From an uncultured Acidobacteriota bacterium (lineage in GTDB: Bacteria > Acidobacteriota > Terriglobia > UBA7540), in the NCBI GenBank assembly GCA_963804995.1, contig CAWDSK010000003.1:96001-160000 (forward strand): 64,000 nucleotides of DNA. The letters are read 5' to 3'. The notes beneath the pieces were generated by a model that was given only the letters and a program-made list of their open reading frames with translations, was not told where the DNA came from and searched no databases. The translations under genes were made by a program, and so were the position numbers. Shown here piece by piece: positions 51,667-59,262 of the stretch. Positions within the stretch are counted from its first letter, which is position 1; each line of letters begins with the position of its first letter.

Positions 51667-53775
51667 ATGAAAAACCGTTGGTCTGATCAAGACGCCCATC
51701 AATTCGTGGCGCAATACGGCACCCAGTGGGGAGAAGATCTGGCTTTACGGACGTACACCACGCGCTTGCTCGGCAGCGATGCGGCGCTCGTGCTGCACGG
51801 TGGTGGCAATACTTCCGTGAAGGCAACTTATCGGAATGTCTTTGGCCAGGCTATGCCGGCGCTCTTCATGAAGGCGTCGGGGTTCAATATGGCCAAGATC
51901 GAACCTCCGGGCCACACCCCGCTTGACCTTGAATATTTGAAACGGCTGTGCGCCTTGCCGGAGCTCTCCGATGACGCGATGGCCGGCGAGTTCCTCTTGC
52001 ATCGCCTGGATCCGGAAGCCGCGCCGCCCTCGATCGAGACCCTTTCGCACGCTTATCTCCCCGCCAAATTCATCGACCACACGCACGCAGACGCCATCCT
52101 GGTGCTGACCAATCAGCCCGAGGGCGATAAGCTGATTCGCGAAGCGCTGGGCGACGGCGTAGCGCTGGTGGACTACTTCAAGCCCGGATTCAAACTGGCC
52201 AAGGCCGTGATCGCCGCTTACGATTCGAACCCAGGGTGCCGGGCTCTGGTGTGGTTGCGGCACGGAATCATGACTTGGGGCGCGACGGCACAAGCCTCCT
52301 ACGAAGCCATGATTGATTTGGTGACACGCGCCGAGGAATTCGCGGCCCGGCGCGCTTCAAAGCCGCTAGTAGTGGTAGTCCATACGCCGCTTGCCGAAGC
52401 GGAAAAACGACTAGTGGAAATTGTCCCAGTAGTGAGGGGTTTGATGGGACGTCGCGCGCTAGAGCGCGCGGAGCCGCAACGTCGTCGCGTAATAGTGCGA
52501 CATATTGTCAATCCCAGCATCCTGGATTTTCTTGCGTCTGACCGCGGGAAAGAACTGGCGCTGACACCCACGCTGACGTCCGACCATCTGATCCGCACCA
52601 AGGCCCTGCCCCTCTGGATCGATGACCCTGACTACAGCGACCCCGTGAAGCTGCGCGCCCAGCTCACCAAGGGGTTCGAAGAGTATGCCCTCCAGTACCA
52701 GGCTTATCTCGCCAGGCACGCCGCGCTGATGCCCCCGGGCATGCAGCCTTTCGATTCCCTGCCCCGAGTGGTTTTGCTGCCCGGTCTCGGAGCCCTATGC
52801 GCCGGCAAGGATGTTTACGCAGCCAACATCGCCCGCGACATCACGGCGCAGACGCTCGCGGCCAAGGCCAAAATTGCCGCGATGGGAACCTACCAAGGGC
52901 TCGACGAGCGGCACCTTTTTGAGGTGGAATACTTCACCTTGCAGCACGCCAAACTGCGCACCGATGAGCCTCCCCTGGGGCGCGAGGTCGCGATTGTAAC
53001 CGGAGCGGCGGGGGCGATTGGTTCAGCCATTGCGGAGGGGCTTCTCAAGCAAGGGTGTCACGTGGCGCTGACCGACTTGCCGGGCGCGGCGCTCGACAAA
53101 CTCGGCGCAGAACTCAGTTCTCAATACGGTGACCGAGTCGTCACCGCGCCCCTGGACGTGACTGATCCCGCTTCCGTCACGCAGGGCTTCGAGGCGGTAA
53201 TCAGAACCTGGGGGGGCGTCGACCTGGTGATTATCAACGCCGGCATCGCCATGGTCTCACCCCTGGAGCAGATGGACCTCCAGGCTTTCCAGCGCGTCGA
53301 GCGGGTCAATACCGATGGAACGCTGCTGCTGTTGCGCGAATCGGCGCGCCACTTCCGACTGCAAGGGACAGGCGGCGATATCATCCTGGTATCGACCAAG
53401 AACGTTTTTATGCCGGGCGCAAAGTTCGGCGCGTACAGCGCCACCAAAGCCGCGGCTCACCAGTTGGCGCGCATCGCCAGCCAGGAAATGGCGGAGTTGG
53501 ATGTGCGCGTCAACATGGTGGCTCCGGACGCGGTCTTTTCACATGGCAGTCGCCGGTCCGGGCTGTGGGCGGAAGTCGGCCCCGACCGGATGCGCGCGCG
53601 GGGGCTGGATGAAAAAGGTCTGGAAGAATACTACCGGTCACGCAATCTTTTGAAGGCGGCGGTGACCGCCCAGCACGTTTCGCGCGCCGTGCTGTTCTTC
53701 GCCACACGGCAAACTCCCACCACCGGCGCCACAATTCCCGTGGACGGCGGGTTGCCCGACGCGACGCCAAGGTAG
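51667..53775 (+). CDS. Bifunctional class II aldolase / short-chain dehydrogenase (RhaD-like)
   Basis: LVLHGGGNTSVK, PSIET, DHTHAD, VTGAAGAIG, NAGI, YSATK, PVDGG. Confidence 0.93.
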   Translation: MKNRWSDQDAHQFVAQYGTQWGEDLALRTYTTRLLGSDAALVLHGGGNTSVKATYRNVFGQAMPALFMKASGFNMAKIEPPGHTPLDLEYLKRLCALPELSDDAMAGEFLLHRLDPEAAPPSIETLSHAYLPAKFIDHTHADAILVLTNQPEGDKLIREALGDGVALVDYFKPGFKLAKAVIAAYDSNPGCRALVWLRHGIMTWGATAQASYEAMIDLVTRAEEFAARRASKPLVVVVHTPLAEAEKRLVEIVPVVRGLMGRRALERAEPQRRRVIVRHIVNPSILDFLASDRGKELALTPTLTSDHLIRTKALPLWIDDPDYSDPVKLRAQLTKGFEEYALQYQAYLARHAALMPPGMQPFDSLPRVVLLPGLGALCAGKDVYAANIARDITAQTLAAKAKIAAMGTYQGLDERHLFEVEYFTLQHAKLRTDEPPLGREVAIVTGAAGAIGSAIAEGLLKQGCHVALTDLPGAALDKLGAELSSQYGDRVVTAPLDVTDPASVTQGFEAVIRTWGGVDLVIINAGIAMVSPLEQMDLQAFQRVERVNTDGTLLLLRESARHFRLQGTGGDIILVSTKNVFMPGAKFGAYSATKAAAHQLARIASQEMAELDVRVNMVAPDAVFSHGSRRSGLWAEVGPDRMRARGLDEKGLEEYYRSRNLLKAAVTAQHVSRAVLFFATRQTPTTGATIPVDGGLPDATPR

Positions 53776-53957
53776 GACAGTGGCTAGTGGTTAGTGGCTG
53801 GAAAAGGCTGAAATTCGAAAATCGAAACTCGAAAATCGTGGCGAGTTTCGAATTTCGATTTTCGAGTTTCGGCTTTCGGGTGCAACGCACAACCAACGTC
53901 TTCCGGCCCACCGATCCCCCTGCGCAAACCCGCCGCCGGATGTTACAATCCTTCCGA

Positions 53958-54483
53958 ATGGTCCGGAACGTCCCAGGAGACAACGCGCGTCATTGGCATC
54001 GACCCGGGGTTGAATATCACCGGGTATGGGGTGGTGGAAAGCTGCGCCAGTGAAGTCAAACTTGTGGAGGCCGGCGTGATTCGGCTGCCCCCCAGCCAGG
54101 GGGAAAATCTGGCGGCGCGGTTGGAATCGCTGTTCAATGAGCTTCAACAAGTGATCAAGGAGTTCAACCCGCGGGCCATGTGTCTGGAGGAAGTTTACAG
54201 CCATGCCGATTACCCCCGGACAGCAATTCTGATGGGCCACGCGCGTGGGGTTATTTGCCTGGCGGCGCAACTGGCGGGAATCCCGGTGCTGAGTTTTTCC
54301 GCCAAACGCGTCAAGCAGTCGGTGACGGGCAATGGCAATGCCTCGAAACTTCAAGTGCAGCGCTCGGTGCAGCACTTCTTTTCGCTCAATCGAACGCCGC
54401 ACCCACCGGATGTGGCCGATGCGCTGGCGGTGGCTCTGTGTTATGTGAACGCCACCCGCTACGCGAGGAATGGGAAGCGATAG
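53958..54483 (+). CDS. ruvC: Holliday junction resolvase RuvC (one extra G after the ATG)
   Basis: RVIGIDPGLNITGYG, LEEVY, GHARG, VKQSVTGNGNASK, DVADALAVA; removing G at 53961 gives MSGTSQETTRVIGIDPG. Confidence 0.93.
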
Positions 54484-54579
54484 GTGCCGGGTGTCAGGTG
54501 CCAGGTGTCAGCAAAACCCTAGCATCCAACACCTGATACCTGGTACCTGACACCTGATACCTTAGGGAGGAAACACACC

Positions 54580-55224
54580 CTGATCTCCGAAATAACCGGC
54601 GAAGTACTCTACGACCGCATCCAACGCCACTCACTCCTAGTGAGAGTGGAATCGCTTTGCTACGAGATTTTCGTGCCCTCGGGCATTGCCTCGCGCCTGC
54701 GAACCACGCCGGGCCCGGAACGCCGCAATCCCCTGACCTTTTACACGATTTATTACATCGACGGCGGCCTGGGCGGGGGCCACCTGACGCCCAAGCTGGT
54801 CGGCTTCCTCAACCCCCTGGACCGGGAGTTTTTCGAAACCTTCACGACGGTACCGGGTGTGGGTTTTATGAAGGCGTTGAAGTGCCTAATCCGACCAATC
54901 AATGAAATTGCACGCGCGATCGAGCGGGGGGACTCCGCCTTCCTGCGGGGGTTACCATCCGTGGGCCCTAAAATCGCGGAGCGACTCATCACCGAGCTGC
55001 GTGGCAAGATGGCCAAGTTTGCGCTGGCACCTAGCGAAGAACCACTTTCTGTCGAAGAAGAATCCGTATCTCAGATAAGGGTAGAAGCGGTGCATGCACT
55101 TGAGCAGATCGAATTCCCACATGCAGAAGCAGAGCGCATCGTGGCGCAAATCTTCAGTCAGAATAAGAACCTGAACTCAGTGGAGGATTTCCTACGAAAG
55201 GTGTTTGAACAAAAGGAATCATGA
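54580..55224 (+). CDS. ruvA: Holliday junction DNA-binding protein RuvA (divergent; probable CTG start)
   Basis: GGGAGG RBS then CTG ISEITG; LVGF, TVPGVG, LPSVGPKIAERLITELRGK HhH motifs; between ruvC and ruvB. Confidence 0.85.
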   Translation: MISEITGEVLYDRIQRHSLLVRVESLCYEIFVPSGIASRLRTTPGPERRNPLTFYTIYYIDGGLGGGHLTPKLVGFLNPLDREFFETFTTVPGVGFMKALKCLIRPINEIARAIERGDSAFLRGLPSVGPKIAERLITELRGKMAKFALAPSEEPLSVEEESVSQIRVEAVHALEQIEFPHAEAERIVAQIFSQNKNLNSVEDFLRKVFEQKES

Positions 55225-56513
55225 AGGAAAAGCGTACAAGGCACCGCTCGCGGGAGCTAGATCAACGGAAGCCGGCTTCACTAGCATCACCTTCGGCGCT
55301 TGGCAGCCAGAATGATGCTATGTCAGAAGACGGACTCGTAACTGGTGCCCTGTTATCAGAAGGCAAGAACGAGCGAGCAAAGCGGCAGAAATTCGTGGTC
55401 AGGCGCATTGAGCCCGGCACTATCGATAATCCGAACCTCAAAACACCTGCCAAGGAAGCCACGCTGGGCCGGCAGCGATTGGTCACGCCTGCCGCGATTT
55501 CGAAAGAAGAGGAAACATTCAATCAAAGTCTCCGCCCTCCCACGCTCCGGGAGTACGTCGGCCAGAAGACCGTTGTGGAAAAGCTCGAAATTGCACTTGA
55601 GGCCGCGAAACAGCGCCGAGAACCGTTGGAGCACGTACTCTTTCACGGGCCGCCGGGTCTTGGCAAGACAACCCTAGCCTACATTATCGCCCACTGGATG
55701 GGATCTAAGATCGTTACTACGTCTGGACCGGCCCTCGAGCGTACGCACCAACTAATGGGTGTTCTCACTAACCTAAACCAAAATGATGTGTTGTTTATCG
55801 ACGAAATTCATCGTTTGCCAGTAAATATTGAGGAGTTTTTGTACCCTGCAATGGAAGATTTTAGATTAGACATCCCAGTAGATAAAGGACCTTTCGCGAG
55901 GATCATGACGTACCCGCTTAAGAGATTCACACTTGTTGGTGCTACTACCCGCGCGGGGACTGTATCAGCCCCGCTTCGAAACAGATTCGGGCTCTCTTAT
56001 CACTTGGATTTCTATGGTGTGGACGAACTGCAAAACATCGTCCTCCGCTCAGCACGCATCTTAAAAGTAAAAATCAACCGTGCAGGGGCAAGCGAGATCG
56101 CACGCCGCGCCCGTGGTACGCCGCGCATTGCAAACCGCTTATTGCGCCGCGTCCGGGATTTCGCCCAGGTAAAGAAAAAAGGGCTTATTAGTCCGAAGGT
56201 CGCCGGGGAAGCTTTGGACCTCGAAGGTATCGATCAGAAAGGCTTGGATGCGCTCAACCACAATTTCCTCCTGACCATTATCCAACATTACAACGGTGGG
56301 CCGGTCGGTGTCGAAGCGCTCTCTGCTACGCTTAATGAAGAAGTGGACACGCTTGTGGACATGGTTGAACCATACCTATTGCAGCAGGGGTTCATTAGCC
56401 GCACCAAAAGCGGTCGCAAAGCAAATAAACCAGCCTACGAACACTTGGGCATTCGACCACTCACCAATATGGAAGTGGAGTTACCATTTGAGAAACCGGA
56501 TCCGATTGATTAA
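55221..56513 (+). CDS. ruvB: Holliday junction branch-migration ATPase RuvB (long N-terminal extension)
   Basis: LRPPTLREYVGQ, GPPGLGKTT, FIDEIHR, LYPAMEDF, GATTRAG, RGTPRIANRLL, EPYL. Confidence 0.96.
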   Translation: MKEKRTRHRSRELDQRKPASLASPSALGSQNDAMSEDGLVTGALLSEGKNERAKRQKFVVRRIEPGTIDNPNLKTPAKEATLGRQRLVTPAAISKEEETFNQSLRPPTLREYVGQKTVVEKLEIALEAAKQRREPLEHVLFHGPPGLGKTTLAYIIAHWMGSKIVTTSGPALERTHQLMGVLTNLNQNDVLFIDEIHRLPVNIEEFLYPAMEDFRLDIPVDKGPFARIMTYPLKRFTLVGATTRAGTVSAPLRNRFGLSYHLDFYGVDELQNIVLRSARILKVKINRAGASEIARRARGTPRIANRLLRRVRDFAQVKKKGLISPKVAGEALDLEGIDQKGLDALNHNFLLTIIQHYNGGPVGVEALSATLNEEVDTLVDMVEPYLLQQGFISRTKSGRKANKPAYEHLGIRPLTNMEVELPFEKPDPID

Positions 56514-57702
56514 GCCAGAGGTGGGCTTGTCACCAAGGCAACGTGATGTGCCCGAACGGGAGCCAGTGCGCCATCCCCTTGGGTTTGCGGAAATTGTTGG
56601 CCAAACGACCGCGATTCAGCGATTGAAGGAATTCGTCGCTTTGTATTACCAATCTGGAAAACCACCGGGGCATGTCTTACTCACAGGAGTCGAGGGCATT
56701 GGAAAACGAACGCTCGCCCGTGCCTTCGCGGCGGAATACTCCAGCACCCTCAAGGAGATTGATTCCAAGGCACAGAAGAAAACTTTTGACATTTTAGGAA
56801 TCCTAACGAATCTCGGTGACGGGGATTCCCTTTTGGTTAGCGATGTCGCGAGGATTCCCAAGAATCTCATGAGTTTCTTCGTGCCGTGTTTGACAGAGTT
56901 CGGCTGCGATTTCGTTATAGATAAGGGCATGTTCGCCAGGACCGTAAAGATCCCACTTAAACGGTTTACCTGCCTTGCTACTGCACGTTCAAAAACAGAA
57001 TGCCCACCCGAATTGGTCGAGGCTTTTCCACTGATCATCCCCCTTCAGGGTTATTCACAAAAGGAGATGGTAGGTATTTGCGAGCAATTGGTACAGCGGA
57101 GAGGTATTACCATCACGCCGGTGGCAGCGGATCTCGTAGCAGGGGCATCGGCGGGCACTCCCCACCACATCGAGGTGTTGGTTGACCGGCTAGTTCAATT
57201 AGGACGAACTACGATTTCGGCGGAGGATATTGCTCAAGTCGCTTCGCTCCTCGGTTTGAACACAGGCGAGACTGGCTCGGGTTCACCTGGTGAGATTGAC
57301 TCAATCTCCGGAGTAGACTTTGAAAAGGTTGTTGCCGCGCTTTTGCGTGCAATGGGCTTTCAGACTGAAATGACCGAGGTCACAGGTGACGGCGGTATTG
57401 ACATTGTAGCGACCCTCAACAAGCCGTTAATTGGTGGGCGTTTCCTAATCCAATGCAAGAGGTTCGCTCCCGATAAGCTCGTCGGCGCCGCGACCGTTCG
57501 GGACTTCTACGGCGCTGTTACTGCCGACCGTTCGGCTGTTAAGGGGATTCTGATTACAACGTCAGGTTTTACGTCGCAGGCTCTGGCTTTCGCTCAACGA
57601 CTACCAATTGAACTTATTGGCGGCCCGCAGTTACGATCGCTTCTTGCCCAACATGGGATTTCACCAGAAAGTCAGAATGGGCCACATTCCCTCTTTGAGT
57701 GA
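56506..57702 (+). CDS. RuvB-like AAA+ domain (degenerate) fused to Mrr-like restriction endonuclease (start uncertain)
   Basis: IVGQ, HVLLTGVEGIGKRT, GILTNL, IDKGMFAR, PLKRFT mirror the adjacent RuvB; C-terminal FEKVVAALL, GDGGIDIV, IQCKRF, GILITTSGFT. Confidence 0.85.
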   Translation: MIKPEVGLSPRQRDVPEREPVRHPLGFAEIVGQTTAIQRLKEFVALYYQSGKPPGHVLLTGVEGIGKRTLARAFAAEYSSTLKEIDSKAQKKTFDILGILTNLGDGDSLLVSDVARIPKNLMSFFVPCLTEFGCDFVIDKGMFARTVKIPLKRFTCLATARSKTECPPELVEAFPLIIPLQGYSQKEMVGICEQLVQRRGITITPVAADLVAGASAGTPHHIEVLVDRLVQLGRTTISAEDIAQVASLLGLNTGETGSGSPGEIDSISGVDFEKVVAALLRAMGFQTEMTEVTGDGGIDIVATLNKPLIGGRFLIQCKRFAPDKLVGAATVRDFYGAVTADRSAVKGILITTSGFTSQALAFAQRLPIELIGGPQLRSLLAQHGISPESQNGPHSLFE

Positions 57703-57731
57703 AACCGTCATGCTGCCTAACCAGGGTTTCC

Positions 57732-58268
57732 ATGTTACCTGAAACGAATGCTTCCGCACCGCCCCGTCGCGATGAACTGAAGCAGGTTTACCTGTCGCTG
57801 GGATCGAATATCGGCGATCGGGTGGCAAACCTTCGCAAAGCCATCGAAGAGCTCGACAAGGTCCGGGTCAAGGTTCAAGGGGTATCGTCGTTTTACCGGA
57901 CTGAGCCGGTGGATTTCAGTCCCCAGGCCTGGTTCCTGAATTGCGTAGTGGAGGCCACGACCGAATTGATGCCTCTGCAACTTCTCAAGGCGGTGAAATC
58001 CGCGGAGCGGGCCGTGGGGCGTCGACCGGGAGTCAGCAAGGGCCCTCGACCGATTGACATTGATATCCTGCTTTACGAAAATGTAGTGGTTCGCTCCTCC
58101 GTCTTGACGATTCCTCATGCGCGCATGAGCGAAAGACGGTTTGTGCTGGTCCCCTTGCGCGAATTAGCGCCCGCGGCGCGTCACCCGGTGACCCGGCGGA
58201 CCGTGCTTGAGATGCTTCAGGAGACGAGGGACCTTAGTCAGGTGGTTCGATTCAGAGTTGAGTCATAG
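57732..58268 (+). CDS. folK: 2-amino-4-hydroxy-6-hydroxymethyldihydropteridine diphosphokinase
   Basis: YLSLGSNIG, FLNCV, GPRPIDIDIL, IPH, RRFVLVPL. Confidence 0.96.
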   Translation: MLPETNASAPPRRDELKQVYLSLGSNIGDRVANLRKAIEELDKVRVKVQGVSSFYRTEPVDFSPQAWFLNCVVEATTELMPLQLLKAVKSAERAVGRRPGVSKGPRPIDIDILLYENVVVRSSVLTIPHARMSERRFVLVPLRELAPAARHPVTRRTVLEMLQETRDLSQVVRFRVES

Positions 58269-58339
58269 GCCGCGATATAGTAGCATTTTGGAGCGTCAAT
58301 TCAGGGCCGGCGGGTTGGTGCGGCCCTATGAGGTAAGCG

Positions 58340-59005
58340 GTGTCAAAACCCCGGGATCGCGAGCCCCTACGCTTCCTCGCCATTGAAGGTCCGATTCGTG
58401 TCGGCAAGACCAGTCTCGCCGACCTGCTGGCGGACTCTCTCCACGCGGAGCGCATCCGCGACGTTGAAGACAATCCGTTTCTGGAATCCTTTTATGGCGA
58501 TAAGCCCGGAGCGGCATTTCCCGCCCAGTTCCACTTTCTCATGCAACGGTTCAAGCAGTTGCGCTCACTCGATGTGGCGGCTCATCCCAATCGTCTGATC
58601 ATCAGCGATTACATTTTTGAAAAAGATAAAATCTTTGCGTATCTGAACCTCAACGACACCGAGCTGAAGCTCTACGACCAGTATTATGAGGTGTTTGCCG
58701 AACAGACCCCCATCCCGGATTTGGTGATATACTTGCAAGCGAAGCCGGAAGCGCTGAAGAAGCGGATCGAGAAGAAGGATGTGCCGTTTGAACACAGCAT
58801 TTCTGACGATTATCTGGAAGCTGTAGTGAACGCTTACGAGCACTTCTTCTTCCATTACAAGTCCAGTGATTTGCTGGTGATCGAAACCTCCGAAATCGAT
58901 TTTGTCGACCGGAAGGAAGATTTGCAGCAACTCCTGGACCGCTTGAGCCAGCCGGTTAAAGGCACGCAGTATTTCTTGCCGCTTGGATCCGCCTCGGCGG
59001 ACTGA
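58340..59005 (+). CDS. Deoxynucleoside kinase
   Basis: IEGPIRVGKTSLA, NPFLESFY, DYIFEKD, PDLVIYLQA. Confidence 0.9.
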   Translation: MSKPRDREPLRFLAIEGPIRVGKTSLADLLADSLHAERIRDVEDNPFLESFYGDKPGAAFPAQFHFLMQRFKQLRSLDVAAHPNRLIISDYIFEKDKIFAYLNLNDTELKLYDQYYEVFAEQTPIPDLVIYLQAKPEALKKRIEKKDVPFEHSISDDYLEAVVNAYEHFFFHYKSSDLLVIETSEIDFVDRKEDLQQLLDRLSQPVKGTQYFLPLGSASAD

Positions 59006-59065
59006 GACGGTCGAAGCCCGCGGAATGTGTCCTGTCCAGCCCGTGTAGCGATGCACGGGCGAGCA

Positions 59066-59181
59066 GAGGCTAGAAGAGTTTCAGACCCTCTCTGTCCAGG
59101 CGAGTGGAGGCCCGCACGGGCCCCCCGGACGCTACGTGATGAGCGCCGGAATTACTTCCTGTGACCGAGAGGTTTTTTTAT
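59066..59181 (+). ncRNA. Probable pan RNA motif / attenuator leader of panBC
   Basis: GGCTAGAAGAGTTTCAGACC..TGTCCAGGCGAGTGGA..GGAC bulged stems resemble the pan motif as I recall it; CCTCTC...GAGAGG then T7; directly upstream of panB. Confidence 0.6.
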
Positions 59182-59262
59182 TTGAAAGACCCGGCGGTCG
59201 CCGGACGCCCATTCGTTACGATTGATGTGAAGGTTTTAAATCTCCCTCAAGGAGGAAACGCC

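Follow-up and report, generated by a model that had tools for sequence, protein, structure and literature searches.

A degenerate RuvB-like AAA+ module fused to an Mrr-type nuclease next to ruvB in an Acidobacteriota genome

The fusion gene and its domains

The DNA analyzed here, a stretch of 64,000 nt from contig CAWDSK010000003.1 of an uncultured Acidobacteriota bacterium (hereafter the window), carries a ruvC-ruvA-ruvB cluster, and ruvB is followed on the same strand by an open frame coding for a RuvB-like AAA+ module joined to an Mrr-type nuclease. The original prediction, made from the sequence alone, took this fusion gene for a degenerate RuvB paralog that could co-assemble with RuvB hexamers and deliver a nuclease to branched DNA. 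The architecture, the degenerate ATPase, the intact nuclease site and a tie to RuvAB stood up to our analysis, so that the interpretation is supported in part; co-assembly into RuvB hexamers, nuclease activity and a defense role stay hypothetical. All coordinates are positions in the window, and residues of the fusion protein are numbered from TTG 56506.

56488..57702, + strand: fusion gene, an open frame with Pfam RuvB_N and Mrr_cat
56575..57000, + strand: degenerate RuvB-like large AAA+ domain, aa 24-165 (Pfam, PDB profile, Foldseek)
56686..56712, + strand: altered Walker A, aa 61-69, with glycines and Lys retained and the Ser/Thr after Lys changed to Arg
56764..56835, + strand: helix patch co-varying with the resident RuvB, aa 87-110 (sliding-window identity excess up to +0.23)
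56890..56979, + strand: presensor-1 beta-hairpin region, aa 129-158, strands 133-138 and 145-150 (model, co-variation)
57001..57264, + strand: RuvB-like small (lid) domain, aa 166-253 (PDB profile; model helices 185-249)
57295..57660, + strand: Mrr-type PD-(D/E)xK nuclease, aa 264-385 (Pfam, Foldseek, catalytic residues)
57400-57402 and 57451-57459: nuclease residues D299 and Q316-C317-K318, respectively

Two start codons are candidates. TTG 56506 (398 aa) overlaps the ruvB stop codon (TAA, 56511-56513), which agrees with the overlap seen originally. TTG 56488, six codons upstream (404 aa), is the start of a 100% identical database protein of 404 aa (P0001), and an N-terminus beginning there is common to the relatives.

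The Pfam search detected RuvB_N (6.2e-22, aa 24-162) and Mrr_cat (4e-29, aa 264-380, 101.5 bits against a gathering threshold of 21). RuvB_C, the winged-helix head of RuvB, had no Pfam match in the fusion protein and Mrr_cat stands in its place, as had been proposed. BLASTP aligned the protein with the neighboring RuvB at 32% identity over 249 aa (E 3e-30), and the motifs described earlier as common to the two were seen in this alignment. When a profile of 76 family members was compared with the PDB, RuvB structures were matched at 1e-51 over RuvB residues 17-252, corresponding to the large and small domains, and the best match was the R170A finger mutant of RuvB. In the AlphaFold2 model, which has a mean predicted local distance difference test score (pLDDT) of 87.2, a RuvB-like alpha/beta domain bearing a beta-hairpin is followed by a helical lid, a linker of low confidence (254-261) and, at the C-terminus, a compact alpha/beta domain; Foldseek matched the full model to RuvB (8efv_A, 2.4e-20). 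The large and small AAA+ fold with the presensor-1 beta-hairpin was therefore the one RuvB-defining feature that the protein retained. The C-terminal domain modeled separately (pLDDT 86) showed a restriction-endonuclease-like fold in Foldseek; the matches were the catalytic domain of MspJI (1.3e-8), AF1548 (2.1e-7, TM-score 0.69) and AspBHI (2.7e-7), then NucS/EndoMS and Avs3, and the archaeal resolvases Hjc (1gef) and Hje (1ob8) ranked 34-35 behind restriction enzymes with E of ~6e-3.

Motif states were counted over the alignment of the 76 family members. In Walker A, the glycines and the lysine were largely kept (G61 in 74, G64 in 75, G66 in 76 and K67 in 69 members), and the residue following the lysine was Arg (R68) in 62 and Ser/Thr in six, departing from the GxxxxGK[ST] pattern of RuvB. 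Walker B had Asp at the Asp position in six members and Glu at the Glu position in 12, and Arg occupied the Arg-finger position in two. In the window's protein aligned to RuvB, Walker A ends in GK-R-T, the Walker B pair is S-D, and the Arg-finger position is Ala. The altered Walker A, the lost Walker B acids and the changed Arg finger noted from the single sequence were all confirmed, and the degeneration holds across the whole family, not for the window copy alone. On the nuclease side, D299, Q316, C317 and K318 were present in all 76 members; D299, Q316 and K318 form the catalytic motif (Asp, (Q/E)xK) of the Mrr_cat family. Judging from these residues, the whole family appears to join a hydrolysis-dead ATPase with a preserved P-loop to an intact nuclease, and nucleotide binding may survive because the P-loop is preserved.

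The NCBIfam RuvB equivalog models NF000868 and TIGR00635 gave the fusion protein 106.1 bits against a cut-off of 282 and 100.8 bits against 299, respectively, while the true RuvB of the window scored 464.7 and 415.8 bits. Matches to NCBIfam delta-prime models were weak (~23 bits, cut-offs >250). As four of the five tests that define a RuvB failed, the fusion protein is not a RuvB. It shares with RuvB the large and small AAA+ domains, the presensor-1 hairpin, 32% identity to its neighbor and the genomic association with ruvA/ruvB, but lacks the winged-helix head, the Walker A Ser/Thr, the Walker B acids and the Arg finger, and carries a nuclease. It probably arose from a ruvB duplicate in which the DNA-binding head was exchanged for an Mrr-type nuclease.

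With Mrr, MspJI and AspBHI, type IV-like PD-(D/E)xK nucleases, the protein shares the Mrr_cat domain, the D...QxK triad and the structural matches. It differs from the Mrr-type restriction nucleases in that its targeting module is a dead RuvB, and Pfam found no modification-reading DNA-binding domain of the Mrr N-terminal, SRA or PUA type in it. These likenesses raise an explanation that we consider unlikely but worth weighing, namely a stand-alone restriction or defense nuclease of Mrr type, in which the RuvB module is a nucleotide-binding or oligomerizing sensor without contact to RuvA or RuvB and the adjacency to ruvB is a relic of duplication. It is favored by the Foldseek neighbors MspJI, AspBHI and Avs3, by the kept P-loop glycines and Lys, which suggest a retained ligand pocket, by the fusion of the closest Mrr domains to other putative sensors such as TPR, and by PADLOC matches on the Mrr domain of type IV enzymes, PDC-S02 and ZorD. 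All nine PADLOC matches were confined to aa 262-387, and the mREase_IV models matched the nuclease domain only; no known PADLOC defense system matched the full length, and no conserved system partner was present among the neighbors. Full-text literature searches found no paper on the RuvB_N-Mrr_cat architecture. In line with the earlier remark that it was not recognized as characterized, it appears to be an architecture new to the literature searched, built from known RuvB and Mrr parts.

Family, conservation and genomic context

A protein database search returned 411 matches, and among the 120 listed, 117 carried both RuvB_N and Mrr_cat, the remaining three being short fragments. Source annotations called the relatives 'Holliday junction resolvasome ... 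helicase subunit' or 'restriction endonuclease'. The ESM Atlas contained three clusters of the same architecture (59, 63 and 52 members), mostly from Acidobacteriota. From a species-level genome collection, 158 relatives were obtained and 80 loci were kept, of which 45 were full-length and the others shared the nuclease domain only. The full-length loci came from Acidobacteriota and Binatia-type metagenome-assembled genomes (MAGs), and in 39 of the 45 a single open reading frame (ORF) spanned at least 90% of the match. Comparison with the two closest orthologues gave dN/dS, the ratio of nonsynonymous to synonymous rates, of 0.13-0.16 for the whole gene, 0.06-0.10 for the Mrr part and 0.16-0.18 for the lid; the value of the N domain, 0.12, came from the one pair with an estimable dS, and dS was near saturation. 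All three parts of the gene are under purifying selection in the two estimable pairs.

These results bear on the idea, already raised with the original prediction, that the gene has no function, being either a young duplicate in decay or a chimera of the assembly. The degenerate ATPase motifs would agree with it, as would the broken frame in six of the 45 loci, some of them from MAG assemblies in which ruvB was frameshifted too. Against it stand hundreds of intact homologues down to ~40% identity, with at least 117 database proteins among them, together with the purifying selection on all domains, the invariant nuclease site and the confident fold. The homologues, intact ORFs, motif conservation and dN/dS effectively refute decay or chimera, to which we assign hardly any probability.

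Several relatives carried further segments. A ChlI/Lon-like domain lies in frame upstream of one relative (L035:6029-8194), and the long open frames of L035 and L054 (L054:6203-8140) may just continue from the upstream gene. Cys-rich zinc-ribbon-like segments followed by long charged repeats were found at the N-terminal side of P0034, P0041 and P0070, a large unknown N-terminal domain in P0093, and precomputed SCP2 and Alkyl_sulf_C Pfam hits in P0068.

In 14 of the 45 full-length loci, ruvB was located within 7 kb of the fusion gene, in three arrangements. The fusion gene was downstream of and co-directional with ruvB, as in the window, in five loci (L013, L014, L015, L047, L048), convergent with ruvB in eight (L016, L017, L020, L023, L024, L025, L033, L069) and upstream of ruvA in one (L019). 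Among the convergent loci, folK was on the other side in six, ~4 kb off in L017 and absent nearby in L016. The latter genome belongs to Binatia and has one RuvB only, which looks native, since it is 64-65% identical to Binatia-type RuvBs and 57% to that of the window. The adjacency to ruvB in three arrangements and two phyla is left unexplained by a stand-alone nuclease.

A family tree of 38 members was built by a 'quick' method and rooted on the window's RuvB, omitting the broken-frame members L047, L055, L057, L058, L069 and L086, as well as L048 (ORF stopping ~100 nt before the match end) and L036 (cut at the contig end). The ruvB-adjacent members formed a basal grade spanning the basal splits of the tree, and the clade of the window, L013, L014 and L015 was well supported. 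Given the very long branch to the RuvB outgroup and the 'quick' method, the root is uncertain.

The gene was rare and patchy, and found in Acidobacteriota and Binatia. Most other genomes of the window's genus matched it only via RuvB or unrelated Mrr proteins, including one Mrr-TPR protein. The closest nuclease-only relatives in the genus, the 499-aa ORFs L003 and L050, have an N-terminal Mrr_cat and C-terminal TPR repeats, a sensor-like design not related to the fusion protein. In nine same-genus loci without the fusion gene, the order was ruvC-ruvA-ruvB-folK-dNK with folK directly after ruvB, so that the fusion gene is a presence/absence insert at one site in this genus. The patchy, accessory-type distribution agrees with the stand-alone defense nuclease, as do the surroundings of the members away from ruvB: Pfam analysis of 85 neighbor proteins from 20 non-adjacent loci found no recurring partner, with no methyltransferase among the hits, and the neighbors were housekeeping genes and a few transposases, an integrase, PIN, DUF4143 and a Schlafen-like protein. 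On the other side, tblastn against 72,556 plasmid and 50,697 phage records detected no full-length copy (no match covering at least 80% of the query).

The genes flanking the fusion gene in the window are listed below.

54010..54483, + strand: ruvC (Pfam RuvC 2.4e-36)
54580..55224, + strand: ruvA with probable start CTG 54580 (Pfam HHH_5; RuvA alignment; Shine-Dalgarno-like AGGGAGG at 54564-54570)
55221..56513, + strand: canonical ruvB, 430 aa (Pfam RuvB_N, AAA_lid_4 and RuvB_C; NCBIfam RuvB equivalog)
57699..58268, + strand: folK (Pfam HPPK), located directly after ruvB in relatives without the fusion gene

The GTG of folK at 57699 overlaps the stop of the fusion gene by 4 nt, and folK is followed by the genes for a deoxynucleoside kinase (dNK), panB and panC. 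The GC content was 0.49-0.54 across ~55500-57750 and 0.58-0.64 in most flanks (~0.60), in agreement with the AT-richness of ruvB and the fusion gene pointed out earlier; the dNK gene (58250-59000) was low as well (0.50-0.54). Promoters and terminators predicted in 53700-59200 were no more numerous than expected from shuffled sequence.

No ATG, GTG or TTG exists at the true N-terminus of ruvA, where the conserved residues start at CTG 54580. This codon sits 9 nt past the AGGGAGG (54564-54570), and RuvA from 11 related loci aligns from the same first residue, so a non-canonical CTG start is likely from the sequence. The ruvC-ruvA spacer contains an imperfect palindrome (54482-54562; 30-nt arms, 83% complementary, 21 nt apart), which could be a terminator, an attenuator or an element like repetitive extragenic palindromes (REP-like). 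A second one in the interval between the upstream gene and ruvC (53804-53876; 35-nt arms, 86% complementary, short units of TCGAAA type) gives rise to look-alike ORFs on both strands. The RuvB of the window has a Lys/Arg-rich N-terminal extension of ~100 aa (55221-55520) outside the RuvB families, the Pfam match beginning at aa 104, and the extension is variable, because alignments with relatives begin only at aa 47-84.

The idea that ruvB was transferred together with the fusion gene found no support, since RuvBs of the same genus show 70-76% identity to that of the window, whether their genomes bear the fusion or not. The window's RuvB is 83% identical to the RuvB of L015, and the RuvC, FolK and dNK of the window are closer to those of L013. 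Of the four genomes of this clade that bear the fusion, three (the window, L014 and L015) have a variant RuvB hairpin, which does not occur in any of the nine loci without the fusion; domain III of RuvA is also variant in these three, but not in the eight loci of the RuvA alignment that lack the fusion. The mosaic similarity, these variants and the low GC content of ruvB may reflect allelic replacement.

Co-variation with the resident RuvB

The N-terminal module of the fusion protein was aligned to the RuvB of the same genome (cognate) and to those of other genomes (non-cognate). In four lineage groups with distinct RuvB hairpins, the presensor-1 hairpin of the fusion protein resembled the RuvB hairpin of its own lineage, and the matching was also seen at a finer scale within these groups. 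Over the hairpin (aa 133-155), the mean identity in 16 genomes was 0.61 to the cognate RuvB and 0.40 to the non-cognate ones, and a permutation on 12 representatives gave p = 5e-5. The cognate RuvB ranked first or second of 27 in 16 of the 27 rows, and these ranks included genomes carrying the fusion gene and ruvB on different contigs (G438, G439, G441, G443-G450). The sliding-window comparison located an excess, up to +0.24, only at aa 87-110 (helix and start of the Walker B strand) and aa 129-158. Outside aa 87-158, cognate and non-cognate identities were nearly equal row by row. The tracking of the resident RuvB by the hairpin and helix only, unlinked genes included, is also left unexplained by a nuclease acting on its own.

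Recent gene conversion was rejected as the origin of the hairpin similarity, as the codons showed no excess: the same-codon fraction at identical residues was 0.35 and 0.34 in the two patches and 0.33 elsewhere. The sequence between the patches has remained degenerate, an argument against conversion tracts of great length.

G442, a MAG labeled Acidobacteriaceae (L034, L106, L108), contains two genes for RuvB, of which one is Binatia-like. The fusion protein of this MAG matches the Binatia-like RuvB, in line with the tree, and the bin is thus probably mixed.

A possible accessory nuclease of the RuvAB machine

According to passages of Wald et al. (2022; PMC9477746), domain III of RuvA binds helix alpha-3 together with the presensor-1 hairpin of RuvB, RuvB oligomerizes via its large and small domains and holds DNA by four arginines of the C-terminal head domain, and an Arg acting in trans, together with two acidic residues, drives hydrolysis in the adjacent RuvB subunit. 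A passage of PMC10272136 likewise names the hairpin as the part that binds RuvA domain III. Set against these domain roles, the fusion protein would keep the docking and oligomerizing domains, lose hydrolysis and swap the DNA-holding head for a nuclease. Since the hairpin is the surface by which RuvB binds RuvA domain III, and since that of the fusion protein continues to match the resident RuvB, the protein could dock on RuvA or slot in beside RuvB.

The explanation towards which we lean, with moderate confidence, is that the protein is a RuvB mimic that docks on RuvA or RuvAB and delivers a nuclease. It would be an accessory nuclease working with the RuvAB machine. ATP hydrolysis is predicted to be gone, as neither the Walker B acids nor the Arg finger is kept and the Mg-binding Ser/Thr that follows the Walker A Lys is missing, and the dead AAA+ module would serve as an adaptor that still fits the same partner as the resident RuvB. 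This partner would most simply be domain III of RuvA; the alternative is RuvB, in a ring of mixed subunits. Docking at Holliday junctions or reversed forks would put the Mrr nuclease on DNA, and the conserved P-loop may provide a nucleotide-binding switch. What the sequences show is the architecture, the motif states across the family, the purifying selection, the synteny and the co-variation, whereas we infer which partner is bound, that branched DNA is cleaved and that a switch exists. The functional tie to RuvAB is supported by two independent lines, the adjacency to ruvB in three arrangements and the co-variation of the hairpin. The data are accounted for no less well by docking on RuvA domain III than by co-assembly into RuvB hexamers, the arrangement originally proposed. 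The more specific picture, in which the dead AAA+ module docks on RuvA domain III or sits in the RuvB ring with the nuclease at the position of the head, is put forward tentatively, at slightly less than an even chance.

The same surface would also allow the protein to act as a regulator or competitor of RuvAB, occupying RuvA domain III or poisoning RuvB rings and thereby stalling branch migration, with the nuclease being secondary. The retained and co-varying RuvA-docking surface agrees with this, and a subunit without the Arg finger could not support hydrolysis in the neighboring subunit, given the trans role of the Arg described in a passage of PMC9477746. The nuclease is, however, the most conserved part of the protein, with an invariant triad and the lowest dN/dS (0.06-0.10), which argues that cleavage is the selected activity. 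We regard a chiefly regulatory role as improbable.

Several observations weigh against docking of a RuvB mimic on RuvAB. Some concern the distribution and position of the gene. Only one of 24 other genomes of the genus (G007) had a full-length orthologue, also directly 3' of ruvB, and of 400 further genomes sampled evenly from the phylum, none matched at E <= 1e-40; such a patchy distribution resembles that of an accessory or defense gene. The closest Mrr domains occur in shuffled architectures resembling sensor-plus-effector proteins, such as Mrr with TPR. No ruvB was found in the examined flanks of 31 of the 45 full-length loci, the eight convergent loci are not co-transcribed with ruvB, and the adjacency could merely mark the birthplace of a tandem duplicate. 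The presence of RuvC in the window argues against a simple replacement of the resolvase. Others concern the hairpin. The member L018/G451 has a degenerate hairpin with an identity of 0.22, L016, L048 and L015 match weakly (0.39-0.43), and the window's protein has a hairpin that resembles those of genus-typical RuvBs (0.70-0.74) more than that of its own RuvB (0.57). The co-varying helix (aa 93-101) is the third helix of the model and only a candidate for the published alpha-3, and old gene conversion followed by selection may still be a source of the similarity in the patches.

If the protein does act with RuvAB as a RuvB mimic, its possible roles are a backup nuclease for junctions or forks, or a defense effector cutting foreign recombination or replication intermediates. 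The rarity of the gene and the reuse of related Mrr domains in sensor-like fusions fit a role in defense or conflict.

The proposed logic has counterparts in known systems. A degenerate AAA+ protein as an adaptor resembles, in principle only, the delta-prime subunit of the clamp loader, an inactive AAA+ subunit that belongs to a different clade and has no nuclease. We know of no nuclease, and the literature searches turned up none, that reaches the textbook RuvABC machine by imitating its motor subunit. RuvC in the RuvABC resolvasome, by the model given in a passage of PMC9477746, would follow the same logic of a nuclease brought to a junction bound by RuvA and RuvB. RuvC differs in having an unrelated, RNase H-like fold and in being a core gene, present in the window, whereas the fusion gene is rare; the fusion protein would dock by RuvB mimicry and not by replacing a RuvA tetramer. 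McrBC (abstract of PMC6344862) and other systems of AAA+ protein plus nuclease also couple an AAA+ module to a PD-(D/E)xK-type cleavage module, but McrB, an active GTPase, belongs to another AAA+ clade and sits on a chain separate from McrC, while the AAA+ module here is RuvB-derived, predicted to be hydrolysis-dead and fused to its nuclease.

If this reading is true, the fusion protein would add an accessory component, unknown until now, to the machine that processes junctions in bacteria, either a new nuclease of junctions and forks or an immune effector using the host RuvA as a sensor of branched foreign DNA. Should the docking be real, it would represent a new way of targeting a nuclease to branched DNA and a natural pseudo-ATPase adaptor co-evolving with its active paralogue. 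The co-variation signal would also map, from sequence alone, RuvB surfaces important for partner binding.

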